This document shows, piece by piece, positions 1-15,789 of a stretch of 16,501 nucleotides of DNA; within the stretch, counting starts at the first letter, position 1, and each line of letters begins with the position of its first letter. This DNA comes from a virus: the UHGV virus genome UHGV-0096653; one strand, written 5' to 3'. The position numbers and the translations under genes were made by a program. The notes under the pieces were generated by a model, which was not told the DNA's origin, did no database searches, and was given only the letters and a program-made list of their open reading frames with translations.

Positions 1-589
1 CCCACTGGCGCTTTTTAGGGCTGAATACAACCGCATCAGGATGGCGAGTTAAAAAATCCTGTTCATCCGTCTGCGTGTCCGGTTGCGAAGCGTCCGGACG
101 AGAAGGGTTTTTTTCTGACGGATCATGTTTTGATTTTACTGACGGATCCCCGCCAGATTCTGACGGGTCAAAACTGGTTTTTTTGGTGGATTCCGACGCC
201 TCAAATTTTGAGGGGTCAATTTTTGACGCATCAGATTTTGACGGTTCAGATTTTGATGTGTCAGATTTTGACGGGTCAGAATCTGACAGTTGAGAAAATG
301 CCGCTGCCTGAAGCTTCGCAACGTTAAGCTGATAAACATTCGACGCATTGCGGTTACCCTGGCGACGCGCCTTACGCGTTAACCAGCCTTCTGCTTCCAG
401 CCGTGCGATAGCCGTTCTGACGGTACTCATCCCCGCGCCAATCTGACGGGCAATGGTTTCAATTGATGGCCAGCACACACCTTCGTCATTACTGAAATCA
501 GCCAGGCGGGCCATAATTGCCACGCTGGATAATTTCATGCCTGATGCAGCGCAACCATCCCATACATAGCCGGTTAATTTAGTGCTCAT
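1..589 (-). CDS. Phage replication initiator-like protein (lambda O-like role), 3' end beyond window
   Basis: Minus-strand frame open from ATG at 589-587 to the window edge (absent from ORF track because no stop is in the window). Translation starts MSTKLTGYVWDGCAASGMKLSSVAIMARLADFSNDEGVCWPSIETIARQIGAGMSTVRTAIARLEAEGWLTRKAR, a winged-helix DNA-binding N-terminus, followed by pentapeptide repeats (DPSKS-like) encoded by tandem 15-bp DNA repeats. Sits after cro/cII-like genes as lambda O does. Confidence 0.6.
   Translation of the reverse strand, partial: MSTKLTGYVWDGCAASGMKLSSVAIMARLADFSNDEGVCWPSIETIARQIGAGMSTVRTAIARLEAEGWLTRKARRQGNRNASNVYQLNVAKLQAAAFSQLSDSDPSKSDTSKSEPSKSDASKIDPSKFEASESTKKTSFDPSESGGDPSVKSKHDPSEKNPSRPDASQPDTQTDEQDFLTRHPDAVVFSPKKRQW
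201..290. repeat. Six tandem 15-bp direct repeats (consensus TCAGATTTTGACGGG), iteron-like; candidate origin inside the initiator gene
   Basis: Head-to-tail units at 201, 216, 231, 246, 261, 276; degenerate copies also at 128-182. Iterons embedded in the initiator gene is the lambda ori/O arrangement. Confidence 0.6.
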
Positions 590-598
590 GACCGACCT

Positions 599-937
599 CT
601 ATTTCCCTGAATTTACGACGAAACTGTTCGAGCGGACTGAAGCATTCATGTTCATAGCCTTCACGGAGGTAGATAACCCGTTGTGTTTCCGGCTCCCAAC
701 GAATGACTCTGACGGGCACTCCGTAGTGATCTTTGAACCAGCGGTTAACTTGTCGCAAAGGACTGTCTCCTTCTGCCGGTTGAAATCACCCACAGCCCAC
801 TCTGCAAAGCTGTGGGTTACAATTTCCCTGTCACCTGGTACATTCACTGCATAGCAATACTCCACCTTCGCTTTTCCACCCGGTACAGGAAGTGCAATCA
901 GTTGCGAACGACGGTAGTGTGTTGTTAAACTGTTCAT
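599..937 (-). CDS. Hypothetical protein (112 aa), translationally coupled to upstream CII-like gene
   Basis: ORF track; its ATG (937-935) overlaps the TGA (936-934) of the upstream gene as ATGA; same strand as the early operon. No recognisable motif. Confidence 0.4.
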
Positions 938-1524
938 GCGTTAGTTTCTCCACAACCAGAAGCAATCGACGCCACGACGCCCGGAGCTGCACACTCGCGG
1001 GCGTTACTCTTTTCTGGAGCGCAAAAGATTTTGTAGACCAGTGCTGCATGCTCCTGGAGCTTCGAAATTGACAGATACAACTCATCATTAATTGCTGTCT
1101 GCTCGTGTGGCTCCACTACCCCATCTTCGATTGCCGAACGAATCTGCTTTGAGTAACTCCCGATCTGTTCGATGACTTCCAGCAGGCGCTGGTTAATATC
1201 GGCGTTGTCCACATCCTCGACGTCAGGAAGAGACACAAAGACGCCATTTGCAGACTGCGCCACAGCATCAGCAATGAAGTGAGTGCCACCAGCACGCTGT
1301 AAAACCATTGCCCATCCCAGCGGGAAAATCTGATCGCCATCAGCACGAAGGCGGTTAAATAATGCGTTCTCTGTTACATCCAGCCAGTCAGCTGCTTCAG
1401 CGTAACCACCCGGCAACGTTGCGATAGTTTTTCTGACAGCTTTCACGTACCACTCAGGCTGTTTTTCTACTTTCCAGTGATGCTTACCCACGGCTATCTC
1501 CTTAAAACTGTGGTTACTTTCCAT
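934..1524 (-). CDS. CII-like early regulatory protein (possibly CP76/YdaT-type), 196 aa
   Basis: ORF directly downstream of the Cro-like gene in the same operon, the position of lambda cII or Rac ydaT. Family assignment is by position and general resemblance only; the annotated start overlaps the cro-like stop by 11 nt, so the true start may be internal. Confidence 0.4.
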
Positions 1525-1762
1525 CTGATAAGTCTTTAATCTTTTGAAAAATATCTGGACGTAATTTTTCTTTTGATACGCCAGTGGTCATTTCAATAAA
1601 TATCGAGAGCTTTGCAGGGGGACGCTTTTCTCTGTTCAACCAGTTCCAGACATGTTGTTGCTTTACTAAACGACCACTGCTGGCTGTGAGCTTCCGAGCC
1701 AATTCTGATTGACCACCAGCCAGAGCGATTGCCTCTGATAAGGCTAATTGCTCAGGTGTCAT
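1514..1762 (-). CDS. Cro-like HTH regulator (YdaS-like)
   Basis: 82 aa with HTH segment AIALAGGQSELARKLTASSGRL; divergent from the CI-like repressor; good RBS (AGGAGA) before ATG at 1762; consensus TATAAT -10 upstream on the minus strand. Confidence 0.7.
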   Translation of the reverse strand: MTPEQLALSEAIALAGGQSELARKLTASSGRLVKQQHVWNWLNREKRPPAKLSIFIEMTTGVSKEKLRPDIFQKIKDLSDGK

Positions 1763-1784
1763 AGCTTTCTCCTATCTGTAAGTA

Positions 1785-1875
1785 GTAAAGTTGTTGATAA
1801 CTTCGATTATACAACTACAACAACTTTTATCACAACTTTTAGATGTTGGAAAGCTAAAACATAAAGTTGTAACCT
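1785..1875. promoter_or_regulatory. OR-like operator cluster with divergent promoters (PR-like for cro on minus, PRM-like for cI on plus)
   Basis: Repeated half-site AAGTTGT/ACAACTT at about 1788, 1811, 1820, 1833, 1864, including the imperfect palindrome AAGTTGTTGATAACTT. Minus-strand -10 TATAAT (complement of 1806-1811) with -35 TTGTGA (complement of 1830-1835), 18-bp spacer. Confidence 0.65.
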
Positions 1876-1899
1876 CAATAAAAACGAGGGGGATATGTT

Positions 1900-2586
1900 G
1901 TGAAAACATTGGCAGAAAGACTAAAAAGCGAAAGAGAAAAAGCAGGAATGAGTCAGGCGCAACTAGCTGAAAAAATTGGGCTTTCACAACAATCCGTAGC
2001 GAAAATCGAGAATGGAGAAACTCAACAGCCTCGGAAAATTAAAGAGATTGCTAAAGTGTTAGGGGTTTCTCAAAAGTGGTTGCAATTGGGCATTGAGGAT
2101 AACGCGTCTTTCCCAGACCTTGTTGTAAAGGAGGCTGAAAGTACAGCATTAGATCCTGACATTTTTGCAAACATTCCAGTCCTAGATGTCGAGTTATCAG
2201 CGGGTAATGGATGTTTGGCTGAAATAGTTGAATCAACTGTAGACTGGTTCCCGCTAAGAAGGATTGATTTAAGAAAAGCTGGTGTATGTGTCTCCAATGC
2301 AAAGATCGTAAAAATTTGGGGCAATAGTTTACTACCTGTACTTAACAATGGAGATTTTGTTGCTGTTGATGTTTCCCAAACGGTTCCTATTCGTGATGGG
2401 GATCTTTATGCCATACGTGATGGCGTATTACTTAGAGTTAAAATATTGATCAATTTACCTGACGGTGGTCTGATTCTAAGAAGTTTCAATAAAGATGAGT
2501 ATCCAGATGAAATTCTCACCTTCGAAGATAGGCGTTCCAGAATTCACGTTATAGGTAGAGTATTCTGGTCATCGCGCACTTGGTAA
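1900..2586 (+). CDS. CI-like phage repressor, N-terminal HTH plus C-terminal S24 (LexA-like) autopeptidase domain
   Basis: 228 aa; HTH MSQAQLAEKIGLSQQSVAKIENG; Ala-Gly cleavage site in ELSAGNG; Ser-Lys dyad context (WGNSLLP ... LLRVKIL); GTG start at 1900 preceded by GAGGGGG. Confidence 0.85.
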   Translation: MKTLAERLKSEREKAGMSQAQLAEKIGLSQQSVAKIENGETQQPRKIKEIAKVLGVSQKWLQLGIEDNASFPDLVVKEAESTALDPDIFANIPVLDVELSAGNGCLAEIVESTVDWFPLRRIDLRKAGVCVSNAKIVKIWGNSLLPVLNNGDFVAVDVSQTVPIRDGDLYAIRDGVLLRVKILINLPDGGLILRSFNKDEYPDEILTFEDRRSRIHVIGRVFWSSRTW

Positions 2587-2613
2587 TGCATCAAAAAACC
2601 TTCCTTCAGAAAT

Positions 2614-2718
2614 TTAGTTACCATTATTACCCGCCTTTTCAATCTTCCTCCCGTGATTTGAGAGTTTCCAATCACGGAAGGAAAGTGTCCCTTGTGTAAT
2701 TAAAAGCGCATCGTCCAT
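2614..2718 (-). CDS. Small hypothetical ORF (34 aa, MDDALLITQGTLSFRDWKLSNHGRKIEKAGNNGN)
   Basis: Strong SD AAGGAGG 5 nt upstream of ATG (minus strand); no recognisable domain; convergent with cI. Confidence 0.3.
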   Translation of the reverse strand: MDDALLITQGTLSFRDWKLSNHGRKIEKAGNNGN

Positions 2719-2772
2719 ACAACCTCCTTTTTTGATAACCCTTGCCCTCATTTCACATCCGTCAAAACCACA

Positions 2773-2830
2773 TAAAGTTGTTGACAACAACCAAAACAAC
2801 AACTAGATTACAACTTAAAGATGTTGCAGT
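2773..2830 (+). promoter_or_regulatory. PL-like promoter with second operator cluster
   Basis: -35 TTGACA (2781-2786), 17-bp spacer, -10 TAGATT (2804-2809). Carries near-copies of OR motifs: TAAAGTTGTTGACAAC (vs TAAAGTTGTTGATAAC at 1794) and ACAACTTAAAGATGTTG (vs ACAACTTTTAGATGTTG at 1843). Confidence 0.6.
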
Positions 2831-2924
2831 AACGAACAGGCAGGACGCCCACGAAGTAGCCGCCGGTGGCGTATGAATGACCGGATGATTCGTTAGCAAC
2901 AAAAAAGCGCCCTACAGGACGCTT

Positions 2925-2937
2925 TGCTCTTTAAAAA
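2925..2937 (+). promoter_or_regulatory. boxA-like element (TGCTCTTTAAAAA), possible nut-type antitermination site
   Basis: Close match to rrn/lambdoid boxA (TGCTCTTTAACAA / CGCTCTTA); lies about 120 nt downstream of the PL-like promoter on the same strand. Confidence 0.4.
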
Positions 2938-3090
2938 TCAGTAACCCTCACTTTGGGCCTGGACCTGGTGGCCTGGGACGAGGAGGAATATGAAAAGGCT
3001 CTATTGGTCGGCTCATTATCCAATCCTATTATGTCTCATTTCTTCGGTTTCGGTGGTTTCGGCTTCGGAGGTACATGTCCGTGAACTGGA

Positions 3091-3585
3091 TTATGCTTGT
3101 TGCTCATCATTAATATCCGTTAGTTCATTCTCTAGAGGTAGATCTCCCGCACACCAAGCTATAAATTTTTCTTTGGTTGTTAAATCGTACTTAGTTGGAA
3201 CACCAGCAAAAATACAGGCCCGAATGAAAGCCGCTCGTTCAAGTGATTTCCATGGATTACTATCAGTATCTTGGATTTTTAAATACCTAGCTTGCAACTG
3301 ATCTTCAGAAAGAGTATCAGACTCAATCAGCAGTCTTTTGTAATGTCTCGCTTGTTCTTTAGACATCCCAGCCTCCTGGCCGAACTGATAGACCAACTGA
3401 AGAACCGAAAGTACGGCAACAAACAAACCAAAAATAAATAAATTACTGTACGGGGCGAAAACTGAAAAACCGAGAACGATTAACATCAACGTTATTAATT
3501 TATCAATGCGAGTTAACAACGTGTAATTCATCTTCTCCAATACATAAGAGTAGTGAATATAAAATTTATAATCGTCTCTGGTCAT
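3091..3585 (-). CDS. Two-TM inner-membrane protein, candidate superinfection-exclusion (SieB-like) protein
   Basis: 164-aa ORF (probable start at internal ATG 3531 with GGAG RBS, giving MNYTLLTRIDKL...). Two hydrophobic helices (LITLMLIVLGFSVFAPY, LFIFGLFVAVLSVLQLVY) then a charged C-terminal domain. AT-rich relative to flanks; immediately beside the immunity region. Confidence 0.55.
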   Translation of the reverse strand: MTRDDYKFYIHYSYVLEKMNYTLLTRIDKLITLMLIVLGFSVFAPYSNLFIFGLFVAVLSVLQLVYQFGQEAGMSKEQARHYKRLLIESDTLSEDQLQARYLKIQDTDSNPWKSLERAAFIRACIFAGVPTKYDLTTKEKFIAWCAGDLPLENELTDINDEQQA

Positions 3586-3967
3586 ATTAGTCTCAGTTTT
3601 CCTTGGGTGGTTTTGGAGGAACTGGAGGCTTTTGTCTTAACGGCACATGCCTCTCCTCATACTTATCTACACATAGATCCATATAAATCCTTATCGTTGT
3701 TGGGGAGGGTTACATAATAACCAAATCCTTGTTGTTGGGGAATAACCAGGTCCACCTCGCCTGATGTGGCTAAAAGCAGGCACATAACAGCTAAGTATTT
3801 TCAACCAGAGAGAATCCTTAGCGTTGTGGTGAATGCGGCTCAGCGCACGCGGGTTAAGGTTGAGGCTGACAGTCGACCTTCTGTGGATACCCACCCGTCT
3901 GGTGTGCAACCTTCGCCAGGCACCGGGAGGCACCCGGCACCACAACTTTATGCTGTGTGTAGTCCTG

Positions 3968-4013
3968 GCGGTACCAGTTTGTACACTTGCTTCCGGCTGG
4001 TACCGCTCTTTTT
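3968..4013 (+). terminator. Rho-independent terminator
   Basis: Perfect 10-bp inverted repeat GCGGTACCAG ... CTGGTACCGC followed by TCTTTTT. Confidence 0.6.
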
Positions 4014-4150
4014 ACAAAACAGAGAAGAGCATCACCGGACGACGGGCTCATAACCCAATCCATCCGGGCGGCTGCCACCGCAGGTGTTCTTCTCTGTTTT
4101 GTGGAGAAACCAACCGACCTTGCAGGGTCGATATGATGAGGAGCAGCAAA

Positions 4151-4513
4151 ATGGCTAGCGAACGCAGTACTGATGTGCAGGCATTTATCGGGGAGCTGGA
4201 CGGCGGCGTATTTGAAACCAAAATCGGCGCAGTTCTCAGTGAAGTCGCTTCCGGTGTGATGAACACGAAAACCAAAGGTAAGGTCTCACTCAACCTGGAA
4301 ATCGAACCATTTGATGAGAACCGTGTGAAAATCAAACACAAACTCTCATATGTTCGCCCGACTAACCGCGGGAAAATTTCCGAAGAAGACACCACCGAAA
4401 CGCCGATGTATGTCAATCGCGGTGGTCGCCTGACTATTCTGCAGGAAGACCAGGGACAATTACTGACTCTTGCCGGTGAACCTGACGGAAAACTCCGCGC
4501 AGCAGGTCATTAA
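4151..4513 (+). CDS. yfdP: YfdP-like hypothetical protein (120 aa)
   Basis: GAGGAG RBS 7 nt before ATG 4151; first gene of an operon whose gene order and product lengths (120/274/178/120) match the E. coli K-12 CPS-53 yfdPQRST cluster as recalled from memory. Confidence 0.5.
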   Translation: MASERSTDVQAFIGELDGGVFETKIGAVLSEVASGVMNTKTKGKVSLNLEIEPFDENRVKIKHKLSYVRPTNRGKISEEDTTETPMYVNRGGRLTILQEDQGQLLTLAGEPDGKLRAAGH

Positions 4514-4578
4514 TATCGTTCTTAATTAACTGATTATTTATCTCATCACTGAATATCTTTATATAGTGAGGACTTATT

Positions 4579-5403
4579 ATGTCTCAGAACTTAGACGCAA
4601 CCGCAATTAATCAAATCCATGCCCTTATTTCTGCTCAGGGTGTTAATGAAATTATCAGTAAGATTGGTGCCGATGCTGTGGCATTGCCTGAGAATTTCCG
4701 CATTCATGATCTGGAAAAATTTAATTTAAATCGCTTCCGTTTCCGTGGTGCGCTTTCCACTGCCAGCATCGATGACTTTACCCGTTATTCTAAAGATCTT
4801 GCAGATGAAGGCACCCGCTGCTTTATCGATGCTGATAATATGCGTGCCGTCAGTGTACTTAACCTGGGTACTATTGATGAACCAGGTCACGCAGATAACA
4901 CCGCCACTCTCAAACTGAAAAAGACAGCACCGTTCTCTGCCCTGCTGTCTGTTAACGACGAGCGTAACTCCCAGAAGTCACTGGCAGAATGGATTGAAGA
5001 CTGGGCCGACTACCTTGTGGGCTTTGATGCTAATGGTGACGCTATTCAGGCAACAAAAGCGGCTGCGGCAGTCCGTAAAATCACGATTGAAGCAAACCAG
5101 ACCGCTGGTTTTGAAGATAATGACTTCAGCGGCAAACGCTCCCTGATGGAATCTGTCGAAGCGAAGACCAAAGACATTATGCCAGTGGCATTTGAATTTA
5201 AATGCGTTCCGTTTGAAGGTCTGAAAGAACGTCCGTTTAAATTACGCCTCAGCATTATCACTGGCGATCGTCCTGTACTGGTTCTGCGCATTATTCAGCT
5301 GGAAGCGGTGCAGGAAGATATGGCTAACGAATTTCGTGATCTGCTTGTTGAGAAATTCAAAGACAGCAAAGTAGAAACCTTTATTGGTACTTTCACCGCC
5401 TGA
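4579..5403 (+). CDS. yfdQ: YfdQ-like protein (DUF2303-type), 274 aa
   Basis: RBS GTGAGGA; length and operon position match yfdQ as recalled. Confidence 0.55.
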
Positions 5404-5530
5404 TTTCATTACTGCAAATGCCCCTGCGGGGGCATTTATGGAAACGTAATTAACTCAATAATCACCGGATGGTGAGGGCTTCCTTTTACCCAAACTCAGC
5501 GCGGTGCAGCGCATATACGTGGAGAACAAA

Positions 5531-6067
5531 ATGTCATTTATTAAAACTTTTTCCGGGAAGCATTTTTATTATGACAAGATAAATAAAGACGACATCGTGA
5601 TTAACGATATCGCGGTTTCCCTTTCAAATATCTGCCGCTTTGCCGGTCATCTTTCTCACTTCTACAGTGTCGCCCAACATGCGGTGCTTTGCAGCCAGCT
5701 GGTGCCGCAGGAATTTGCTTTTGAAGCGTTAATGCATGATGCAACAGAAGCGTATTGCCAGGACATCCCCGCACCACTGAAACGCCTTCTTCCTGACTAT
5801 AAACGGATGGAAGAAAAAATAGACGCCGTAATCCGTGAGAAATACGGGTTACCCCCAGTTATGAGTACGCCCGTGAAATATGCCGATCTTATCATGCTGG
5901 CAACCGAACGCCGCGATCTCGGGCTTGATGATGGCTCTTTCTGGCCTGTACTGGAAGGCATCCCGGCAACAGAGATGTTCAACGTGATTCCACTGGCACC
6001 GGGCCATGCCTACGGGATGTTTATGGAACGTTTTAACGAGTTATCGGAGTTACGCAAATGCGCATGA
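5531..6067 (+). CDS. yfdR: HD-domain phosphohydrolase, YfbR/YfdR-type 5'-deoxynucleotidase
   Basis: 178 aa from ATG 5531 (GGAG RBS). HD signature: H in FAGHLSHFYSVAQHAV and HD in ALMHDATEAY. Confidence 0.7.
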   Translation: MSFIKTFSGKHFYYDKINKDDIVINDIAVSLSNICRFAGHLSHFYSVAQHAVLCSQLVPQEFAFEALMHDATEAYCQDIPAPLKRLLPDYKRMEEKIDAVIREKYGLPPVMSTPVKYADLIMLATERRDLGLDDGSFWPVLEGIPATEMFNVIPLAPGHAYGMFMERFNELSELRKCA

Positions 6068-6420
6068 ATGTTTTCGAAATGGAAGGGTTTCTTCGCGGGA
6101 AATGTGTACCGCGAGATCTGAAAGTGAACGAAACAAATGCTGAGTACCTGGTACGTAAATTCGACGCGCTTGAAGCTAAATGTGCGGCACTGGAAAACAA
6201 AATAATACCAGTGTCAGCTGAACTGCCACCAGCAAATGAAAGTGTTCTGTTATTTGATGCTAACGGAGAAGGCTGGCTGATTGGCTGGCGTTCTCTCTGG
6301 TACACCTGGGGACAAAAAGAAACCGGAGAATGGCAGTGGACATTTCAGGTCGGGGACCTTGAAAACTTCAATATCACTCACTGGGCAGTAATGCCAAAAG
6401 CGCCGGAGGCTGGAGCATAA
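6058..6420 (+). CDS. yfdS: YfdS-like protein (DUF551-type), 120 aa
   Basis: Start overlaps the yfdR-like stop; length and position match. Confidence 0.5.
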   Translation: MRMNVFEMEGFLRGKCVPRDLKVNETNAEYLVRKFDALEAKCAALENKIIPVSAELPPANESVLLFDANGEGWLIGWRSLWYTWGQKETGEWQWTFQVGDLENFNITHWAVMPKAPEAGA

Positions 6421-6773
6421 TGACCACATTTACCAATAAAGAACTGATTAAAGAAATCAAAGAACGAATCAGCAGCCTAGAGGTTCGAGACGATATTGAG
6501 CGCCGTGCTTATGAAATTGCTCTGGCATCGCTAGAAGAGGAGCCGGTGGCATGGCTGCATTCAGAAAATGGCTTAGGTATTCCGGCAATAACGAGGAGTA
6601 AAAACATTGCTGACAGTTGGTTATCAAAGGGCTGGTATGTTCAGCCGCTATATATAGCCAAGCCAGTGCCGGTGGTGCCAGATGCTCGTCCGTCTTTAAA
6701 TAATGGCATAGTCGGCTTTGATGAAGGCTGGAACGCCTGCCGCGCCGCCATGCTTAATGGGAAAGGAGAGTGA
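6420..6773 (+). CDS. yfdT: YfdT-like hypothetical protein, 117 aa
   Basis: TAATG stop/start overlap with previous gene; position in operon. Confidence 0.45.
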   Translation: MTTFTNKELIKEIKERISSLEVRDDIERRAYEIALASLEEEPVAWLHSENGLGIPAITRSKNIADSWLSKGWYVQPLYIAKPVPVVPDARPSLNNGIVGFDEGWNACRAAMLNGKGE

Positions 6774-6774
6774 T

Positions 6775-7038
6775 ATGGCAACTTTAACAAAAAAAGAACG
6801 GGCATGGTTGAACGAATTACAGGACGTTCTTGATCGCTGCCCATCACCGAAAAAAATTGGTTTTTACACCATTGGCGATAAAAGCATTTACCTGTATGAC
6901 CTGCGCCGCATGGATGAAATCATGGAGGCTCTTGATAATCGTTCGTCAATGGATTGGTGTGTTGCTGTCCATGATATGAATGCAGGGTTTGATGAAAAGA
7001 TTTTGTTCCCCTCATCAGTTGAAAGCACAGCAGGATAA
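6775..7038 (+). CDS. Small hypothetical protein (87 aa), last gene of the operon
   Basis: Strong RBS AAAGGAGAG before ATG 6775 (track start 6718 is a less likely upstream extension); followed by a terminator. Confidence 0.5.
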   Translation: MATLTKKERAWLNELQDVLDRCPSPKKIGFYTIGDKSIYLYDLRRMDEIMEALDNRSSMDWCVAVHDMNAGFDEKILFPSSVESTAG

Positions 7039-7073
7039 GGACCCAGCAAATATACACAACCTATAAAACACTA

Positions 7074-7098
7074 AAGCGCCTCAGGGGCGCTTTTTGTT
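7074..7098 (+). terminator. Rho-independent terminator
   Basis: AGCGCC-TCAG-GGGCGCT stem-loop followed by TTTTT. Confidence 0.7.
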
Positions 7099-7200
7099 TG
7101 CACAAAAGTGCACAAATTTGCACAATTTTTTTGAACGACTTTTTACCCTTCCGGCCCGCATGGCGGCTGGATCCGTCAAGGATCCGTGCGTGCACAAAAA
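7099..7200. repeat. Phased TGCACAA repeats and GGATCCGT direct repeat; candidate protein-binding array (packaging or regulatory site)
   Basis: TGCACAAAAG / TGCACAAATT / TGCACAATTT at exact 10-bp period (7099-7128); a fourth TGCACAA at 7191; GGATCCGTCAAGGATCCGTG at 7168-7187. Confidence 0.5.
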
Positions 7201-7496
7201 AACGCGTTTTTTCTGCGCGCAGGTGACGGGGGAACAGCCCGCGTTTCAGGGGGTAAATAGCATTCCCTGAACGATGTCGCAGAGACACAACAGAATGGCC
7301 ATATTTCTCACGCTGAGCATGAAAAAGGCGTGAGGGCTTTTGATTTGATGGGGTGAAAGGTAAGGCCGTCAAAATCGCACTGAGGCAGCGAGAACATGCA
7401 GTCAACGCGGTGGAATTGCGTAAGAGTCTGACCGTCGATGGTGGCGATAAACTGGAAGGCGTCGTGAAATTATCTGATTGATACAGGAGCTGGAGA

Positions 7497-7525
7497 GCCG
7501 GGGCATAAATTTTTTATGCCCCGGC
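7497..7525. other. Near-perfect 29-bp palindrome / strong hairpin
   Basis: GCCGGGGCATAAA-TTT-TTTATGCCCCGGC; no flanking U-tract on either strand, so not a canonical intrinsic terminator. Confidence 0.5.
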
Positions 7526-7624
7526 GAAGCAGCAGACAAGCGAAGCGCGTCAGCGATACGGCACCTTGCCGACCATACTTCATAAGTGCAAAATACGAGC
7601 AAAGAAATCAATGGAGGCTGTCTT

Positions 7625-8149
7625 ATGGTCATTAATTACAAGCAGTTAAGAGAAAAACGGGAGCAGGTAAAGGAGAGCTTTCGCCGCAATGAAGATCTGA
7701 CCCCGCTTGTACGCCTTGCCCAGGGCATTGTTGATGCTTATGAAATCTCGCTGGAGCTGCCATCACAGACCTGGACAGATAGCGACGGTAATCGCCAGCA
7801 TTACGTTTCATGCGGACTGGAAGCAGCCGAAGGATTTCGCAGAATGCCTTTATCCCAGATCCCTGCCGCTACCCCCAAAGCACGGGGCAGCAATGATGAG
7901 CGAAAACTGACTTTTAGTATTGAAACGGTGGTTGACGACACACCTGGCGAAGTCGCGTTCGTGCACACGCCTGTTTCGATCGCAATGTATAACGATGAAA
8001 TACAGGTTCGCGTTAATAATAATATCGTGCCACTTAAAGAAGGTAATTCACCCTACACCACCGTTTGTGAAGCCATTCAATATTACGTTCTCTCTGAAAT
8101 TGATAATCTCAAGCCTGACGGCACCCAGAAAATGGTTCAACTCTGGTAA
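7625..8149 (+). CDS. Orphan hypothetical protein (174 aa), function unknown
   Basis: GGAGG RBS 7 nt before ATG 7625 (track start 7586 is a GTG extension); ends at a bidirectional terminator shared with the portal gene. No motif recognised. Confidence 0.6.
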   Translation: MVINYKQLREKREQVKESFRRNEDLTPLVRLAQGIVDAYEISLELPSQTWTDSDGNRQHYVSCGLEAAEGFRRMPLSQIPAATPKARGSNDERKLTFSIETVVDDTPGEVAFVHTPVSIAMYNDEIQVRVNNNIVPLKEGNSPYTTVCEAIQYYVLSEIDNLKPDGTQKMVQLW

Positions 8150-8181
8150 AAAGGACAGCCCCATCACGGGGCTGTTTTTTC
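8147..8181. terminator. Bidirectional rho-independent terminator between the orphan ORF and the portal gene
   Basis: CAGCCCC-ATCAC-GGGGCTG stem-loop with TTTTTT on the plus strand and a T-run on the minus strand; the portal stop codon lies in the loop. Confidence 0.7.
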
Positions 8182-9210
8182 ATCAAGAAGAGCATAAGAG
8201 TTAAAACGGATCACCTCTTCGCCAAGCCAGTCATTGATGTGCTTCATAGCCTCCATGACGGGCATCAGCTCGTTAATTGCGTAAACCCGCGCTGCCTTCT
8301 CCACATCGCCAAACGCACTTTTTTCGCCCGGCATCGCCCCCATCAGTTGCGGCGGAACGCGGTGCGCAGCCAGCACATCATCACGGGATGCCGCCTTAAC
8401 ATTCATGAATTCATCTTTTGCGGTGATCTGCTGGAACGGCAAAATTTGCACCCCCTCTTTGCCCCCGTTGGGCGCATGAATGAGCACGTTTTTAAACGCA
8501 CCACCACCACGTGCCCCCTGTAGCGTTTCTTTCAGGGAGTCCATGCTTTCGCGGTTTACCTGCGCTGCACCGATGTAGATGATGCACCCGGCGTGGGATC
8601 CGTTGTCGTAGTACAGTTTTCTGAACATGTCCGCCGAATGAGAAAGGCTGGCCGAGAGTAATGCGCCAAGATATTCCGGCATGCCGTAGATTTCCTGGTT
8701 AATATCCGGATTCATCAGGTGGCACACTTTGCCAGGACGAAACTGAAACGCGTCCTTGCCATCCTGCACATACCACCATGATTCAAGATCGCTTCCGCGT
8801 CGCATGTATTTCGCCAGTGCGTGCCGTAATTTAAGCGGTTCGCCGAGCATATTGCTTCGAAGCTCAAGGTATGCGTTACCGAACACAAACCAGTCCAGCG
8901 CCAGCGCCGAGAAATCCTGCCGGGAAAGCAGCGGGTGCGGGATGTAGCAACCGAGTAATACATTGCGCTTAAAGTAAAGCGCAGACTGATGCCAGGACGT
9001 TTGCCGGGCAGCTCTTGCCAGACCGTACCAGTCCACCGGTGTTTCATACCACCGCCCGTTATCAGCACAGTACATATTGTCCAGCAGGTCATGCCCGGTC
9101 AGGCGATAAGGACCATCAAATGTGAATGCACTGAGCGATGATTCTTTCCTGAGCGCATCAGCGAGATCAATGCGTGAACTCATGCGCACTTTTTTATTTT
9201 TTCTGCTCAT
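8164..9210 (-). CDS. Q: P2-type portal protein (gpQ-like)
   Basis: 348 aa; size and position immediately downstream of, and overlapping, the terminase large subunit on the same strand, as in P2 Q-P. Confidence 0.8.
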   Translation of the reverse strand: MSRKNKKVRMSSRIDLADALRKESSLSAFTFDGPYRLTGHDLLDNMYCADNGRWYETPVDWYGLARAARQTSWHQSALYFKRNVLLGCYIPHPLLSRQDFSALALDWFVFGNAYLELRSNMLGEPLKLRHALAKYMRRGSDLESWWYVQDGKDAFQFRPGKVCHLMNPDINQEIYGMPEYLGALLSASLSHSADMFRKLYYDNGSHAGCIIYIGAAQVNRESMDSLKETLQGARGGGAFKNVLIHAPNGGKEGVQILPFQQITAKDEFMNVKAASRDDVLAAHRVPPQLMGAMPGEKSAFGDVEKAARVYAINELMPVMEAMKHINDWLGEEVIRFNSYALLDEKTAP

Positions 9211-10961
9211 CAGAACTCCATAACCGTGAAACGCTCGTTTTCTCCTTCGCCGCCAATTGGTTCGTTAATGACAGCAAGCATGGTTGCCCACGCAAGGTCG
9301 CCGTGGCTGATCCCCCTCGCGCGGTCCGTTTCGTAAGTGATAAAGCCGCCCGGTGTTTTCACCTTACGCACGGCGTTAAAGGCTGCGACCAGCTCGCGTT
9401 CGGCGCGATCGTATTCCCACCGCCCGGCGCGCATTATTTGCAGCATTTTCAGTACCAGCGACCGTTTTGATGACAGCGTGAAGGTGTACGGAATAGCAGC
9501 AGGGAAAAACCGTTTCACTATCTGATAAACAGCCTCCCCGTTCCCGCCTGTCACATCAATGCCGATGTGTTCCACGTTGTAGCGACACGTGAACTCTTCA
9601 ATGACTCTGGCCTGTTCTTCAAACTCCAGCCCCTGAACGCGTCGCGTCTCCACCGTTCGAAAACGGCCTCCAGGAACAGCCGGAGGAACCACCACGGACA
9701 CAGCGCCGCTGTCGCCGTTTCCACTGCTGCCGTTTGCGTCATACCCAATCCATACCGGACGATTCCCCATCGGGCGGGGAGCAAAAGGTTTCCAGTCTTT
9801 CCAGTCGTCGTATCCGTCAACACCACAGCCAATCAGGATATTCAGGTTAAATGCCGATTCCCCTTCGCGGACAAACTCACACATATAGAGATTGAGGAAC
9901 TCGTCTTCGGTGTTTTCATCACGAATTTCATCAATATCGGTGTGTTTCCAGCCGTGATTAACCACATCTTCCAGCGTGACAATTTGCCGCCACGTCCGGT
10001 CAGGGCAGATAAGCCCGTTATGCAGCGTTTTCCAGTCCACAGAAAAACGCTGGCGTTTATGCGAGGCCTTTTTCTCGTTCCAGCGGTCGCCGTTCCAGTA
10101 GGCGTATGCCTCGTGCGTTTCGGTGGATGGCGTGGAGAAGTAGGTGCGCCGCAGTCCGCTGAGGGTTGCCATAGCGCCAGCCACCTTGCGCAGTTCAGCA
10201 AAGCGACTGACCCAGAAAAATTCATCAAAATAAAAATTGCCCGTGTAGGACTGTGCCGTCGCAGCAGAAGTACCAAGAAAATGCAGCTCTGCGCCGTTGG
10301 AGAGGATGATTTTATCGCCCCCTTTCAGCTCCACATCAACTTCAGATGCAGCCTCCTGAATAATGCTTTTAAACTGGAACGCCTGACGACGCGACGCAGA
10401 CAAAAAAATCTGGTTACGCTGGTAAGGTTGCGCCACATCGTCACGCAGCGCCATCAGCAGTGCTTCCTGAGCAAAATACCAGGTCGCCCCAATCTGTCGG
10501 GATTTCAGGATCATCCTGTTACGTATCCCGGCCTCCCTGCAAAGGGTCAGGGAGTCAAACCAGCCCCGCTGATGCCACTCCAGCCTGCTGATGATTTTTT
10601 CCCGCAGTGCGGCAATCTGTTCCGGCGTGAAATGATTTTTGAGTTTTTTCGCCCGGCTTTTCTTTCCTGTGGCCGTCGCATCCGGCTGGCCATCATGCAG
10701 TTTTTTAAGCTGCCGGGTCAGCAGGTCTATTTCCTTGAAGTCACCACCTGTTTTATTCTGTTTTTCAGTAAGCTGGATGAGGCGCGAATCGATGGACTGC
10801 GTGACACGCTGCACGGGTGGCGTTTCATCCCACTGGTCGCGTTTTTTCCACGCATAAATCGTGTTCGGGTTTATTCCCATCAGACGTGATATTTCTGCGG
10901 GCGGATAACCCTGCCAGTAAAGTTGCCGCGCACGCTGGCGCACAAAAGCGTCCTGAATCAT
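9210..10961 (-). CDS. P: P2-type terminase large (ATPase) subunit (gpP-like)
   Basis: 583 aa; N-terminus MIQDAFVRQRARQLYWQGYPPAEISRLMGINPNTIYAWKKRDQWDE typical of P2-family gpP; divergent from the O-N-M-L operon. Confidence 0.85.
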   Translation of the reverse strand: MIQDAFVRQRARQLYWQGYPPAEISRLMGINPNTIYAWKKRDQWDETPPVQRVTQSIDSRLIQLTEKQNKTGGDFKEIDLLTRQLKKLHDGQPDATATGKKSRAKKLKNHFTPEQIAALREKIISRLEWHQRGWFDSLTLCREAGIRNRMILKSRQIGATWYFAQEALLMALRDDVAQPYQRNQIFLSASRRQAFQFKSIIQEAASEVDVELKGGDKIILSNGAELHFLGTSAATAQSYTGNFYFDEFFWVSRFAELRKVAGAMATLSGLRRTYFSTPSTETHEAYAYWNGDRWNEKKASHKRQRFSVDWKTLHNGLICPDRTWRQIVTLEDVVNHGWKHTDIDEIRDENTEDEFLNLYMCEFVREGESAFNLNILIGCGVDGYDDWKDWKPFAPRPMGNRPVWIGYDANGSSGNGDSGAVSVVVPPAVPGGRFRTVETRRVQGLEFEEQARVIEEFTCRYNVEHIGIDVTGGNGEAVYQIVKRFFPAAIPYTFTLSSKRSLVLKMLQIMRAGRWEYDRAERELVAAFNAVRKVKTPGGFITYETDRARGISHGDLAWATMLAVINEPIGGEGENERFTVMEF

Positions 10962-11115
10962 TGCTCCCCCTGAGTAATTACAGGAAGATTACCCGCGCGC
11001 GAAACCGTTCTCCTTAACCCCCTGCTCTGACTGTTTTCTTACAACAAAAGCCCTTTGTATCTGCCTGTTACGCTTTGCCATCATGACTGAAGAACCAGTC
11101 AGAGGGGCAAAAGCT
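10962..11115. promoter_or_regulatory. Divergent late-promoter region between P and O (P2 PP/PO equivalent)
   Basis: Position only; no clean TGT-N12-ACA activator dyad could be confirmed by eye. Confidence 0.35.
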
Positions 11116-11952
11116 ATGGCTAATGAAAAAAAGACATCCCGCAAAAAGTTTCGCGTGGCTGTCTCCGGATCAACTGTTGATGGCCGTGAAATCAGTCCGG
11201 TGCATCTGCGTGAAGCCGCCGAGAACTTCAACCCGGATGTTTACGCTGCCCGCGTGAACGTTGAGCACTATCTCTCGCCATGCCCGTCAAGCGAATTTTC
11301 CGCAATGGGCGATGTCACCGCACTGAGTACGGAAGACATTACGGAAGGTCCGCTGGCCGGACGTACTGCGCTGTATGCAGAAATCGAACCGACCGAGCGC
11401 ATGAAGCAGCTTGTCGCGGACGGCAAGAAAATCTATTCCAGTATCGAACTGCACCCGCAGTTCTCCGTTAACGGGCGCGCCTATCTGGTCGGGCTGGCGA
11501 TGACCGACACCCCGGCAAGCCTGGGCACTGAGCGCCTGAAATTCACGGCACAGCAACGTCAGGCGGTAATGACGTTCAACAGTGTCCAGGGTGAAGCGCC
11601 GCTTATCTCCGAAGCCATCGAGTCTGAAATCATCGAAATGGCAGAACAACGCCAGGAAGAAGGCACCCAGTGGTTTAACCGCGTAATGGGGATTATTGGC
11701 CGTGGCCGCAAAGCGGATGACGCCAGTTTTTCCCGCATTCAGGAAGCGGTGGAAGGCGTTGCAACGTCACAGGCCGACATTATCGACCGTTTTAATGTGC
11801 TGGAAACCCGCCATCAGCAGGACCGCCAGAAAATCACGTCACTGAACACAGAGCTGACAGCATTGAAGGAAAAACTGCGCACGCAGGACGGCGATCCGCA
11901 GAACCGCTTCACCGCAACGGGCGCAGCCTCCGACCAGCTGGCTGACTTCTGA
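11116..11952 (+). CDS. O: P2-type capsid scaffolding protein (gpO-like)
   Basis: From ATG 11116 (GAGGGG RBS): MANEKKTSRKKFRVAVSGSTVDGREISP... resembles the recalled P2 gpO N-terminus (MAKKVSKFFRIGVEGDTCDGR), and LVGLAMTDTPASLGTE matches LVGLAVTDDPASLGTE. Confidence 0.8.
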   Translation: MANEKKTSRKKFRVAVSGSTVDGREISPVHLREAAENFNPDVYAARVNVEHYLSPCPSSEFSAMGDVTALSTEDITEGPLAGRTALYAEIEPTERMKQLVADGKKIYSSIELHPQFSVNGRAYLVGLAMTDTPASLGTERLKFTAQQRQAVMTFNSVQGEAPLISEAIESEIIEMAEQRQEEGTQWFNRVMGIIGRGRKADDASFSRIQEAVEGVATSQADIIDRFNVLETRHQQDRQKITSLNTELTALKEKLRTQDGDPQNRFTATGAASDQLADF

Positions 11953-11975
11953 TAAGACAAAGGAGCAAATTTTTT

Positions 11976-13028
11976 ATGAATCTGGTGATGTCAGATATTA
12001 CCCGCAACAAGCTGGGTTGCTATATGGCGCAGCAGGCGTCGCTTAACAATATCCCGGTATCTGCACTGGTATCGCGATTTACCGTGGAACCCGCGGTGCA
12101 GCAGCGTTTTGAAAACGCCTCAAAGGAAAGTACCGAATTTACGAAAAGAATTAACGTGATCGGCGTGACCGACCAGAAAGGCGAAAAAATCCTCCTGGAC
12201 ACCACCGGGCCAATTGCACGCACGAATAGCAGTTATGACGGCATCAAACGCCGTAACCCGAATAACGTGATCGATATGAAGTCTCGTCAGTACCAGTGCG
12301 AACAGGTGAACTACGATACCTTTATTTCGTACCCACAGCTTGATACCTGGGCGGCCCACAGCGATTTTCAGTCCCGTATCAGTACACAGATCGCCCGGCA
12401 GGTAGCGCTTGATCGCATCATGATTGGCTTTAACGGCACATCCCACGCCTACGAGTCTGATTTTCACACCAACAAGCTGCTTCAGGACGTTAACGTGGGC
12501 TGGCTGGAGCACATCAGAACCGATGCCAGCGAGCGCGTAATGAATGACGTGACGCTGACCTCCCGCAACATGGACAACACTGTGGCGCACGCGGGTAAGT
12601 ATGCGAATGCCGATGCTCTGGTACAGGATGCGCGCTCATCCCTGCTGGATGAATGGCACAAGGAAGCTGACGACCTCGCGGTGATTATGGGGCGCAACCT
12701 GTTTAACTCGCTGCGTCTGCCCGTGCTGAACAGCATCAGCGGCCAGAATCCCAATGCGGAATTACTTGCCGGGCAGCTCATCCTGTCATCGCGCACCATT
12801 GGCGGGCTGGGCGTGTTCCTTGCGCCGTTCTTCCCGGATGCAACGATGCTTATCACCTCGTTCAACAACCTGTCGATTTACTGGCAGAAAGGTTCAATGC
12901 GTCGCCTGATGAAAGACGAGCCGGAATACAACCGCATCGCCACCTACCAGTCCATCAATGACGCTTATGTCGTTGAAGACTATGGCAAGTGCGCAATGAT
13001 CACTGGCCTGAAGTTCGCCGACAGCTAA
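11976..13028 (+). CDS. N: P2-type major capsid protein (gpN-like)
   Basis: 350 aa; motifs shared with recalled P2 gpN: FTVEP, IMIGFNG (IMAGFNG), GWLE, NLSIYWQ (NLSIYY), YVVEDY. Confidence 0.85.
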   Translation: MNLVMSDITRNKLGCYMAQQASLNNIPVSALVSRFTVEPAVQQRFENASKESTEFTKRINVIGVTDQKGEKILLDTTGPIARTNSSYDGIKRRNPNNVIDMKSRQYQCEQVNYDTFISYPQLDTWAAHSDFQSRISTQIARQVALDRIMIGFNGTSHAYESDFHTNKLLQDVNVGWLEHIRTDASERVMNDVTLTSRNMDNTVAHAGKYANADALVQDARSSLLDEWHKEADDLAVIMGRNLFNSLRLPVLNSISGQNPNAELLAGQLILSSRTIGGLGVFLAPFFPDATMLITSFNNLSIYWQKGSMRRLMKDEPEYNRIATYQSINDAYVVEDYGKCAMITGLKFADS

Positions 13029-13037
13029 TCAACTCAC

Positions 13038-13056
13038 GGCGGGCATCATGCCCGCC
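13038..13056 (+). other. Intergenic perfect stem-loop between N and M
   Basis: GGCGGGCAT-C-ATGCCCGCC; no U-tract, so likely an mRNA processing/stability element rather than a terminator. Confidence 0.4.
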
Positions 13057-13073
13057 TGTAACGGAGAGAAAAA

Positions 13074-13874
13074 ATGATTACTCCTGCACAACAACACTGG
13101 CAGAACGTGATGGCACAGCGCGCAGGCCAGGCGAATGAAGGTGTGGACCACGCCGCGCGTACCGCGCATGAAGAGGTGCTGTATCGTCTGCGTCTGGCAC
13201 AGGCCAGGCTAAAGGGCGTACAGGCCAGAAGCGCGAAAGCCGCCATCAAAAAAGAGTTGTTGCCGGACTTTTCCGGCTGGATTGAGGGAACGCTGGAGAC
13301 TGACGGCGGGCAACAGGACGAAGTAATTGCCACGCTGATGGTGTGGGCGATTGACTGCGGCGATCTTCCGCTGGCGCTGCGTATTGGTGCATATGTGGTC
13401 CGTCACAACCTCATCATGCCGGATAACTTTGGCCGTACTGCTGCCACGGTACTGACCGAAGAAATCTGCAACCCGGTACTGACGCAGGCCGGGACGGATG
13501 CCGACGCGGATTTATCCGCCTTTATCGAACCACTGGACACACTTTGGGAAATTGTCGCCAACCAGGACATGCCGGACGAAGTGCGCGCCAAATTATGCAA
13601 GGCGTGTGCCTTTGCCCGTCGTGGCCTGACCGATGCAGACAACATGGCCTCATCACTGAAGCTGCTGCGCGAAGCGATGCACCTGAACCCGAACGCAGGT
13701 GTGAAACGCGAGATTGCAACCCTTTCCCGCGCCCTGAAAAAAGCCGATTCCGCAGCCGCACCAGAAGACGCCAGCACACCGCAGGCGCAGGACGAAAGCA
13801 GCAAAAGTAAAAAGACAACGCAGAAGCCTGCAACACGAAAAACCACCGCGACGCAGAAGGCAAAGCGCGGTTAA
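13074..13874 (+). CDS. M: P2-type terminase small subunit (gpM-like)
   Basis: 266 aa; MITPAQQHW... and DMPDEVRAKL match recalled P2 gpM (MTSPAQRHM..., DMPDEVRAKL); basic C-terminal tail. Confidence 0.8.
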   Translation: MITPAQQHWQNVMAQRAGQANEGVDHAARTAHEEVLYRLRLAQARLKGVQARSAKAAIKKELLPDFSGWIEGTLETDGGQQDEVIATLMVWAIDCGDLPLALRIGAYVVRHNLIMPDNFGRTAATVLTEEICNPVLTQAGTDADADLSAFIEPLDTLWEIVANQDMPDEVRAKLCKACAFARRGLTDADNMASSLKLLREAMHLNPNAGVKREIATLSRALKKADSAAAPEDASTPQAQDESSKSKKTTQKPATRKTTATQKAKRG

Positions 13875-13890
13875 CGACTGACCCCGTCAG

Positions 13891-13962
13891 CGGGCGGCGT
13901 GCGCGGTGTTCCGGTTTGACTCCGTGACCGTTTACACCGCGCACCCACCGCCCGATTTTTTC
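13891..13962 (+). terminator. Long imperfect hairpin plus T-tract between M and L (possible intra-operon attenuator)
   Basis: CGGGCGGCGTGCGCGGTGT ... ACACCGCGCACCCACCGCCCG followed by ATTTTTTC. Confidence 0.45.
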
Positions 13963-13975
13963 AGGAGTGAACCCC

Positions 13976-14470
13976 ATGAGTATGGTTGCCAGAACTAACC
14001 CCGGCCCCGCAGAGGACGACATCACCGACACCGATGATGGCGATACCCGTATTTCAGCGGGTGCATTCTGGCCGGATATTGTGCTGCGCGAGCTGCGTCT
14101 GGCGGTACGACTGCCGGGCCGCGTGACCACCTCCCGCCTGCTGCATACCGCCACCGGGGCCATAGCACACGTTACCCGCGAGCTGGAAGCATGGCAGCAG
14201 GAACAACAGGCGGCTGGCTATCAGACGCTGGCCGATGTTCCGGCCCCTGTAATTAACGGAGAAAGCGTCAATCTCTGGCACTGGCGCAATGCTGTTTATA
14301 CCGCCACACGCGCCCTGATTCTGGAGCGTTACCGCGATGCGGACACAACGGACAAGGGCGACCGCCGGGCGGACGCACTGGATATACAGACATCGGATTT
14401 GTGGCGCGATGTGAGCTGGGCCATCTCTGACATTCTGGGACGACCGCGAATGTTTGCGGAGCTGTGCTGA
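13976..14470 (+). CDS. L: P2-type head completion/stabilisation protein (gpL-like)
   Basis: 164 aa from ATG 13976 (GGAG RBS); LADVPA..INGESV and ELWRD resemble recalled P2 gpL (LADVPADDIDGESI, ELWRD). Confidence 0.75.
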   Translation: MSMVARTNPGPAEDDITDTDDGDTRISAGAFWPDIVLRELRLAVRLPGRVTTSRLLHTATGAIAHVTRELEAWQQEQQAAGYQTLADVPAPVINGESVNLWHWRNAVYTATRALILERYRDADTTDKGDRRADALDIQTSDLWRDVSWAISDILGRPRMFAELC

Positions 14471-14670
14471 TGAAAGTGAAGGCACTGGAAGGCGACACCG
14501 TGGATTCGCTCTGTTTCCGGTACTACGGCACGACACAGGGCGTCACCGAAAAGGTGCTGGATGCCAACCCCGGACTCTGTCAGCAGGTATTTCTGGACGC
14601 CGGGCAGGAAGTGGAGATGCCGGAGCCGGAGAAGAAGAAACGAGAAATGATTCAGTTGTGGGGGGAGTAG
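14470..14670 (+). CDS. X: P2 gpX-like small protein (LysM-like tail protein X)
   Basis: 66 aa MKVKALEGDTVDSLCFRYYGTTQGVTEKVLDANPGL resembles recalled P2 X (MKTFALQGDTLDAICVRYYGRTEGVVETVLAANPGL); ATGA overlap with L. Confidence 0.8.
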   Translation: MKVKALEGDTVDSLCFRYYGTTQGVTEKVLDANPGLCQQVFLDAGQEVEMPEPEKKKREMIQLWGE

Positions 14671-14672
14671 CA

Positions 14673-14996
14673 GTGAGCACCATTCAAACAGGGATCACAG
14701 AGCAGGTTATTGCGTGGCTCTTTGACCACCTGCCAACGGTGTATGCAGTAGGCGCGGCTGTCAGCATTTCCGCGCTGATGAGTCTTTATGACGGACGAAC
14801 ACTGGTTCAGACCGTAACGGGATCGCTGGCGTGCGGCGTTCTTGCCATGGCCGTGGCCGGGTCGCTGCGCTTCTTCGGGATCCCTGAGGATGCAGTGACG
14901 TTTTTTGGTGCCTCAATCGGTTTTATGGGCGCAGAGAAAGCACGCGACAAGGTTATTGCAATATTTGATCGCAGGGTGAAGGAGAGGAACGAATGA
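14673..14996 (+). CDS. Holin (three predicted TM segments)
   Basis: GTG start after GGGGGAG; hydrophobic segments PTVYAVGAAVSISALMSLY, VTGSLACGVLAMAVAGSL, AVTFFGASIGFMGA and a charged C-terminus; directly upstream of the endolysin with ATGA overlap. Confidence 0.65.
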   Translation: MSTIQTGITEQVIAWLFDHLPTVYAVGAAVSISALMSLYDGRTLVQTVTGSLACGVLAMAVAGSLRFFGIPEDAVTFFGASIGFMGAEKARDKVIAIFDRRVKERNE

Positions 14997-15385
14997 GCAA
15001 CACATTTAAATTCAGCAGCCGAAGCGAAAAGAATTTGCAGGGTGTAAATCCTGATCTGGTGAAAGTGACCCGACGGGCGCTGGAAATCTCGGAAGTGGAT
15101 TTTGGTATCACCGAAGGATTGCGCAGTCGTTATCGTCAGAAGCAGCTCGTGACCACAGGCAAGAGCCAGACCATGAACAGTCGCCATCTCACAGGGCATG
15201 CCGTGGATGTTGTGGCTTATGTCGGCAACCAGGTGTCATGGGAATGGCCGCTGTACGAAAAAATCGCAGCAGCATTCAGACAGGCCAGCCAGGAACTGAA
15301 TATTCCGGTGGAATGGGGCGGCGACTGGAAGACCCTGAAAGACGGACCGCATTTTCAGTTACCACACGGAGCCTATCCGGCATGA
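14993..15385 (+). CDS. Endolysin, peptidase M15 family (L-alanyl-D-glutamate endopeptidase type, T5 Lys-like)
   Basis: 130 aa; zinc-ligand context SRHLTGHAVDV and C-terminal GPHFQL; overall resemblance to the recalled T5 endolysin. Confidence 0.75.
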   Translation: MSNTFKFSSRSEKNLQGVNPDLVKVTRRALEISEVDFGITEGLRSRYRQKQLVTTGKSQTMNSRHLTGHAVDVVAYVGNQVSWEWPLYEKIAAAFRQASQELNIPVEWGGDWKTLKDGPHFQLPHGAYPA

Positions 15386-15789
15386 AGCTCTGGCCCACGC
15401 TTGGCGTCGCTTTCCTTCTGATTGCCGCATGGGGAACATCCATGCGTCTGTCGTGGTCGCTGGGCCGGGAGAACGCCAGAAACGAAGCGCAGGCCAGCAC
15501 CCTGAAAAGTACCGTCGACACACTGAATATCATCAGCGCCGGGGTACAGGATATGCAGCAGGTGCTGGCTCAGCTCCGCGCGGAAAATCAGCAACGCAAT
15601 CAGGACGGAGAGGTAAGACGTGAACAGCTACGCAACGATATTGCAAAAGATGAATGCGCCCACGCTTTGCCTGACGCTCGTTTTACTGACAGGTTGCGCA
15701 GGCACGCAGAACGCGCCAGGGCCAGCGCCGTCAGTCCGGCTTATACCGCAGACGCTGACCATGCCGGTAACGCCTCCCCCCTTCCCTGA
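15382..15789 (+). CDS. i-spanin (Rz/LysB-like)
   Basis: ATGA overlap with endolysin; N-terminal TM (LWPTLGVAFLLIAAWG) then a Q/R-rich coiled-coil-like region; contains the o-spanin gene in another frame. Confidence 0.7.
   Translation: MKLWPTLGVAFLLIAAWGTSMRLSWSLGRENARNEAQASTLKSTVDTLNIISAGVQDMQQVLAQLRAENQQRNQDGEVRREQLRNDIAKDECAHALPDARFTDRLRRHAERARASAVSPAYTADADHAGNASPLP

Follow-up and report, generated by a model that had tools for sequence, protein, structure and literature searches.

Among the morons of temperate phages, familiar examples are bor and lom of lambda and ctx of phiCTX, the last of which adjoins cos at the left end of the phage genome. The moron concept itself reportedly goes back to Juhala et al. 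2000. Another setting with which a cos-adjacent accessory gene can be compared is the gpA–gpQ region of P2-like prophages, home of old and tin in P2; it is a validated anti-phage reservoir, and three of eight newly cloned systems from it were active (PMC9122126). In Table S5 of that study by Rousset et al., the protein WP_000236495 has at least 167 entries, each time as the last 'hypothetical' in a gpA–gpQ arrangement (PMC9122126). The present analysis concerns the gene for this protein as it occurs in a 16,501-nucleotide stretch of the virus genome UHGV-0096653, the whole of which is called the window below. It is concluded that the gene is very probably a real accessory moron of an unstudied, Enterobacterales-restricted family, PHROG 5091; that its product acts in the exclusion of, or defence against, other phages is put forward tentatively. 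As the locus already stands in a published catalogue, where it drew no comment, and the PHROG of the gene has a name but no function, the gene is filed here as a prophage moron and conflict-gene candidate.

The reading frame runs from an ATG at 7625 through a TAA ending at 8149 on the plus strand and contains 174 codons. A longer open reading frame (ORF) of 187 aa with a GTG start at 7586, which had been listed mechanically, was rejected because every homologue begins MVINYKQ. The 174-aa ORF is not a chance one, since it has both close and distant homologues, the close ones numbering 19 at 46–96% identity, and since the ratio of nonsynonymous to synonymous substitution rates (dN/dS) between its E. 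coli alleles is 0.07–0.12. The corresponding values for the terminase gene P are 0.09–0.13, and the ORF is thus a real gene under purifying selection as strong as that on the terminase among E. coli alleles. The initial annotation had described a well-supported ORF with a ribosome-binding site and terminator, and the GGAGG at 7613–7617, the hairpin at 8155–8175 with its T-run, the homologues and the dN/dS values bear this out; its remark that the protein has no recognisable motif also stands, as nothing matched in Pfam, NCBIfam or PADLOC. The label "orphan" has to be dropped, however, for the protein gave a full-length match to PHROG 5091 (E = 1.4e-67; residues 1–168 against profile positions 1–164 of 164). 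The window gene is an unexceptional member of this family, to which no function has been assigned.

All 42 aligned relatives match PHROG 5091, and an exhaustive profile search gave 89 representatives of clusters at 50% identity, all of 155–185 residues. The named organisms among the family members are all Enterobacterales, and the names given in the sources are uninformative ("hypothetical"); when 5.8 billion proteins were searched with a profile for more telling names, only 'hypothetical' and one apparently wrong 'integrase' label came back. In a scan of genome contigs with a profile from a narrower alignment, only three species-representative genomes were found. Searches of the literature and supplements for the accession and the PHROG identifier led only to Table S5 of Rousset et al.

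Alignment with P88 shows that the gene is part of an inserted cassette. Near-identity extends to 7553 and ends with the ancestral Q stop (TCA, 7550–7552), similarity resumes at about 8191 within the portal gene Q, and the intervening ~640 bp of the window replace 28 bp of P88; direct repeats flanking the cassette, sought as a sign of transposition, were not found. The leader 5' of the ORF is 71 nt long. A TTGnCn-17-CAAAAT arrangement, the candidate promoter of the cassette, is shared by the Salmonella-type loci L017, L018, L063 and L064 despite diverged spacer and flanks. Directly 3' of the gene lies a GC-rich hairpin (stem and T-run, 8155–8180) that the scan listed on the minus strand and that reads as a terminator on both strands; a terminator of its own likewise follows the gene in the relatives L014 and L067. 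The Q stop codon (8164–8166) falls within the loop of the hairpin, whose 3' arm and T-run encode the five C-terminal residues of Q (EKTAP). The C-terminal tail of Q accordingly reads ...LLDEKTAP in the window and ...LLDTQPTS in empty P88-type loci; insertion of the cassette thus altered the portal C-terminus (8164–8181) but left the length of Q at 348 aa. The base composition of the gene, 47.6% GC (48% at third codon positions, GC3), is unlike that of the neighbouring core genes, with 52.8% (GC3 59%) in Q and 53.7% in P.

The gene occurs in 397 of 5426 complete E. coli genomes (~7%) and is always chromosomal. A query spanning cos to Q found 1146 E. coli genomes, and the 397 carriers are the filled loci among them (~35%); the empty state was read from an even sample of this ranking, in which the remainder proved to be almost all clean empty loci of ~844 bp as against 1458 bp when filled (614 bp shorter), with flanks 95–97% identical. 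Carriers include human, animal and environmental E. coli, among them strains labelled ST131, O111 and O55:H7, and as many are labelled ST131 or O111, the carrier counts may be inflated by over-sampled clones. Among 50,697 phage records, only four carry the gene, in identical form, and 12 related ones lack it and have both flanks; it is absent from P2, from P88 and from nearly all sequenced isolates. The sole alternative filling found, in 31 genomes, is that of the L012 type, so that the many unrelated gene sets expected of a hotspot are not seen. The cos–Q slot is essentially two-state, filled or empty, plus this one rare alternative, which is itself a distant family member. The initial annotation had suggested looking for variability of the locus across related prophages, and the gene is indeed accessory, being present in about 35% of related cos–Q loci.

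Within the filled loci the gene is tied to Q. In all 42 close-relative loci, wherever the contig reaches, Q has a constant offset (+539 relative to the ORF, give or take 1 nt), and the gpA–cos cargo upstream varies over the same loci, comprising ParM/ParR with or without extras, an AAA ATPase with an S8 peptidase, or nothing. In E. coli M1/5 (L003, 16063–19433), for instance, a pair of an AAA-family ATPase and an S8 peptidase occupies the gpA–cos bay upstream of the same gene; this type of pair is listed in Table S5 as 'AAA/HTH_50 + Peptidase_S8' (PMC9122126). In an IMG/VR locus (L062, ~7586–9626), about 2 kb separate Q and P, which normally overlap by one base, and the gap points to an insertion between them, perhaps of an IS element.

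The P2 cos sequence GGCGAGGCGGGGAAAGCAC was not found in the window even when three mismatches were allowed, and cos was therefore placed from the linear record of P88_4B11, the end of which reads ...gaacgaatttt and the start TGCCCTTCC...; both ends map at ~7143, and the window is near-identical to the start of this record and to P88 from ~7140 to 7553. Because a cos at ~7143 is upstream of the gene, the gene would lie on the Q side of it, in the cos–Q interval at the left end of packaged DNA, and not in the gpA–cos cargo bay. The initial annotation had placed the gene between the accessory operon, against which it was said to be wedged, and the immediately adjoining P2-type portal gene. Adjacency to Q is correct, with 14 nt between the ORF stop and the convergent Q; on the other side, the terminator of the upstream operon lies at 7073–7093, and the ~530 bp from there to the ORF start at 7625 contain the putative cos, the conserved flank (to 7553) and the leader. 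The distance of "about 250 bp" given for Q and cos in P2 is likewise inexact, since in P2 187 nt separate the stop of Q from the left genome end. The assignment to the P2 hotspot fits in part. As with old and tin, the gene is accessory and cos-adjacent, and in related prophages it lies in the gpA–gpQ region of Rousset et al. 2022, the window itself having no gpA upstream; it differs from these genes in its apparent position on the Q side of cos, in being fixed to Q, in varying by presence and absence only and in diverging together with structural genes.

This co-divergence is seen in the homologues at 56–63% identity from other E. coli and Salmonella P2-type prophages, which also abut the portal gene. 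Between the Salmonella loci and the window, identity is 61–63% for the ORF, 65% for O, 68–69% for N, 74–76% for Q and 79% for P, and in their divergence the Salmonella copies thus roughly match the neighbouring head proteins, scaffold and capsid. The Trabulsiella homologue (46%) lies directly after gpA and is followed by toxin–antitoxin genes. In E. coli DG343-1 (L012), a distant member (72.9 bits with the family hidden Markov model, HMM; 18% identity) fills the cos–Q interval at another point, before the conserved hairpin, and represents an independent insertion. Other slots, in lambdoid and myovirus prophages, are taken by members at 26–33% identity. In lambdoid prophages they are found between the antiterminator Q gene and the lysis genes, and others are placed between endolysin and HNH/large terminase genes or inside tail/baseplate operons; one distant relative is in an ordinary non-phage chromosomal neighbourhood. 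The distant copy in a lambdoid prophage is bracketed by terminators, the second of them immediately 3' of the gene, and has a promoter-like site; a terminator directly follows the gene in two of the three phage-borne distant loci scanned. The positions and trappings of the distant relatives are the classic moron ones. In L067 (6498–6517), and also in L022, a member with its own intrinsic terminator sits in a tail operon right before a putative 835-aa tape-measure gene, an odd position for a terminator.

The locus therefore resembles the morons of temperate phages in being a single gene with its own terminator, a candidate promoter and a lower GC content that is present or absent between near-identical phages, and in having family members in the slots between antiterminator Q and holin, between endolysin and terminase and in tail operons. 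Unlike the products of bor, lom and ctx, its product is predicted to be cytoplasmic and is not an outer-membrane protein or toxin. It has a mass of 19.8 kDa and a pI of 5.0, is hydrophilic, and no signal peptide or transmembrane segment was found in its 174 residues. Pfam and NCBIfam gave no match for the protein or for 41 relatives, and PADLOC-DB v2.0.0 gave none for the protein at E values up to 10.

An AlphaFold model built on the 42-sequence alignment (pLDDT 89.8, pTM 0.80) predicts two N-terminal helices, an eight-strand antiparallel sheet and a C-terminal helix. Conserved throughout the family are Y39, S42, L43, L45, W50, G55, Y60, V61, F97, T101 and a TV-x-DD-[ST]-P loop; S42 and W50 are invariant, and D104, D105 and P107 form a conserved motif on the surface. 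No catalytic motif is recognisable. The best fold neighbours are weak and are protein-binding modules, namely capping protein, the FP domain of PI31/Fbxo7, P1 DarA, AcrIIA11, Imm52 and a type III secretion chaperone. With DarA, AcrIIA11, the chaperones and the FP domain the predicted fold shares helices on an antiparallel sheet of ~150–170 residues; the matches are statistically insignificant, and similarity to DarA, in sequence or structure, does not reach the level that would mark a packaged anti-restriction protein of the DarA type. Neither in sequence nor in fold does the protein resemble Old, Tin or any PADLOC model. The profile searches and structure prediction proposed in the initial annotation gave PHROG 5091 only and no homology to the P2 structural or packaging proteins (Q, P, O, N, M, L), no fold match to such proteins was found in BFVD or the PDB, and the gene is absent from P2, P88 and ~65% of related loci. 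Designed helical-repeat proteins (5cwb and others, E down to 1.9e-10) were matched by the narrow profile A1 and vanished with the broader profile A3; their scores are an artefact, being sums of 12–16-bit matches of one helix-loop segment (residues 125–168) to repeated units.

The favoured explanation is as follows. A self-contained cassette of ~640 bp, comprising a candidate promoter, a strong ribosome-binding site, the 174-codon gene and a terminator, is inserted into the last Q codons, on the Q side of the putative cos, in one P88-like sublineage of P2-type phages. In P2-type phages the gene travels with the Q module, and its relatives take other add-on slots in other temperate phages. It would be transcribed on its own, including in the lysogen. 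Its product, apparently small and soluble with an alpha+beta fold and without a catalytic signature, would probably bind and block a protein, and conflict between phages is the most likely setting. Preference is given to a role in excluding other phages or defending the lysogen against them, similar to that of small prophage exclusion factors such as P2 Tin and Fun, because the cassette is insulated, the family occupies moron slots and the gpA–Q region has a validated anti-phage record. Taken as a whole, an accessory moron encoding a non-enzymatic binder that is expressed in the lysogen for exclusion or defence is the best explanation reached, and should be regarded as plausible rather than probable.

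Several observations weigh against it. The two-state slot, the core-gene-like divergence and the strong purifying selection are unlike the rapid swapping of defence cargo, and because of this and its stable inheritance the gene is not treated as ordinary hotspot cargo. The relatives inside late operons would point to late lytic rather than lysogenic expression. As for a lysogen-active promoter, TTGCCG-17-CAAAAT is a weak match (8/12) that lies below the threshold of the consensus scan, so that it was not called, and it is missing in the P0020-type locus L083, which has the same left junction and a leader of only 37 nt. The 174-aa protein also lacks a recognisable effector domain of the kind present in most single-gene defence proteins known so far. 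Over the 42 family members, four PADLOC models were each matched by a single member (best E 0.009), and by these searches the family appears to be without a PADLOC defence match. In addition, WP_000236495 was not among the systems cloned and tested by Rousset et al. (PMC9122126), and it is absent from the searched supplements of Vassallo 2022 and DefensePredictor.

A role in counter-defence, in which the protein would inhibit a host or prophage immune system and so aid the phage in infection or induction rather than protect the lysogen, is considered unlikely, as the fold matches are insignificant and a placement in late operons or convergent to Q is unlike the usual early-expressed position of anti-defence genes; moreover, insulation of the cassette by its own terminator, together with a candidate constitutive promoter, points to expression that does not depend on the lytic programme, and one relative is in a non-phage chromosomal setting. 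The constant position next to Q in P2-type phages, even in lineages at 56–63% identity, the two independent family insertions within the same cos–Q interval and the capsid-like divergence would suit a dispensable factor, functionally tied to the Q/cos module, that assists in head assembly, packaging, cos handling or the control of lysogeny, as would the relatives beside terminase or within tail modules and the weak fold resemblance to chaperone-like modules. Such a life-cycle accessory is nevertheless quite improbable: the gene is missing from about two thirds of cos–Q loci that are otherwise 95–97% identical and is found in only 4 of 50,697 phage records, it runs against the Q–P operon, its relatives also lie between antiterminator Q and holin and at a non-phage chromosomal locus, and its lower GC and terminator insulation are moron traits.

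Moron architecture would also serve for lysogenic conversion unrelated to phages, that is, for altered host physiology or fitness such as stress tolerance or colonisation, and carriage by E. coli from humans, animals and the environment, with ST131, O111 and O55:H7 among the strain labels, as well as the related gene in an ordinary chromosomal neighbourhood, agree with it. The protein has no signal peptide, secretion signal or virulence or metabolism domain, however, and its family is overwhelmingly phage-borne, so this explanation is given a similarly low probability. That no library or fold search assigns a function might also be expected of a leftover ORF with no current role; this is extremely unlikely in view of the dN/dS of 0.07–0.12, full-length conservation from 96% down to 18% identity, the invariant core motifs and the confidently predicted fold.

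The exclusion or defence reading matters because the exact gene is in ~7% of complete E. coli genomes and is without sequence or fold relatives of known function. If the product is an exclusion, defence or counter-defence factor, PHROG 5091 would become a new family among the known phage conflict genes, and the P2 'hotspot' would comprise two kinds of site, a gpA–cos cargo bay with rapid turnover and a cos–Q accessory slot that is stable and linked to Q. The full form of this claim, a new family of conflict proteins (defence/exclusion or counter-defence) with an undescribed fold that act by stoichiometric binding, together with a second slot, cos–Q, not previously described apart from the gpA–cos hotspot, is possible but somewhat doubtful. 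Should there be no such phenotype, the gene would be one more conserved prophage gene. The features of the locus are collected in Table 1.

Table 1. Position and strand of the features at the cos–Q interval of the window.
Feature	Position	Strand	Remarks
Conserved cos-proximal block	7094–7553		Common to P88-like phages with and without the gene; the P88_4B11 genome end maps at ~7143/7144
Small conserved 42-codon ORF, GTG start	7353–7481	+	Between the putative cos and the hairpin; equals P88 gp22 by the P88 annotation; coding status putative
Perfect 13-bp inverted repeat GCCGGGGCATAAA / TTTATGCCCCGGC	7497–7525		Kept in every P88-type locus examined, filled or empty
Add-on cassette, ~640 bp	7554–8190	+	Present or absent relative to P88-type phages (alignment with P88); left junction directly after the ancestral Q stop, right junction within the Q 3' end
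Candidate sigma-70 promoter	7566–7594	+	-35 TTGCCG, 7566–7571; 17-nt spacer; -10 CAAAAT, 7589–7594
Shine–Dalgarno sequence GGAGG	7613–7617	+	7 nt 5' of the ATG
Coding sequence (CDS), 174 aa	7625–8149	+	WP_000236495 = UniProt A0A0C5EXS4; PHROG 5091 member; product soluble, pI 5.0; 47.6% GC
Terminator hairpin common to ORF and Q	8155–8180	both	Stem 8155–8162 / 8168–8175; T-run 8175–8180
Portal gene Q, 348 aa	8164–9210	-	Convergent with the ORF; begins 14 nt past the ORF stop

The window as a whole is a mosaic: positions 1–7100 form a lambdoid, SfIV/CPS-53-like immunity and early region, and positions 7100–16501 hold a P88-type cos with late genes of P2 type. Its left part encodes a cI-type S24 repressor and CII-like, YfdQ/DUF2303, YfdR/HD and DUF551 proteins and matches SfIV/CPS-53-like lambdoid phages; no gpA gene was found in the window, the early region of which is lambdoid. 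The late genes (Q, P, O, N, M, L, X, holin and others) are of the P88-like Peduoviridae type. No complete E. coli genome carries at least 80% of positions 1–8200 in one place, and no phage record carries at least 80% of positions 1–7100 in one place. Rfam RNA families were not found in the window. The P2 late-promoter motif TGT-N12-ACA was uninformative, with three matches against four expected by chance and none in the P–O intergenic control, and a search of the literature on which end of P2 DNA enters the cell first found nothing relevant.

In the conserved flank, the 13-bp inverted repeat may not be a simple terminator because it has no trailing T-run on either strand; in empty loci it sits ~25 nt past the Q stop. 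In the E. coli DG343-1 locus (L012), RefSeq fuses the 42-codon GTG frame with the inserted family member into a 237-aa CDS. Four of the five copies of TGCACAA in the 16.5 kb of the window are at 7099–7197, three of them in exact 10-bp phase (7099–7125) and the fourth 66 bp further on (7191–7197), so that they flank the presumed cos; these copies may be terminase or host-factor binding sites of a P88-type cos.
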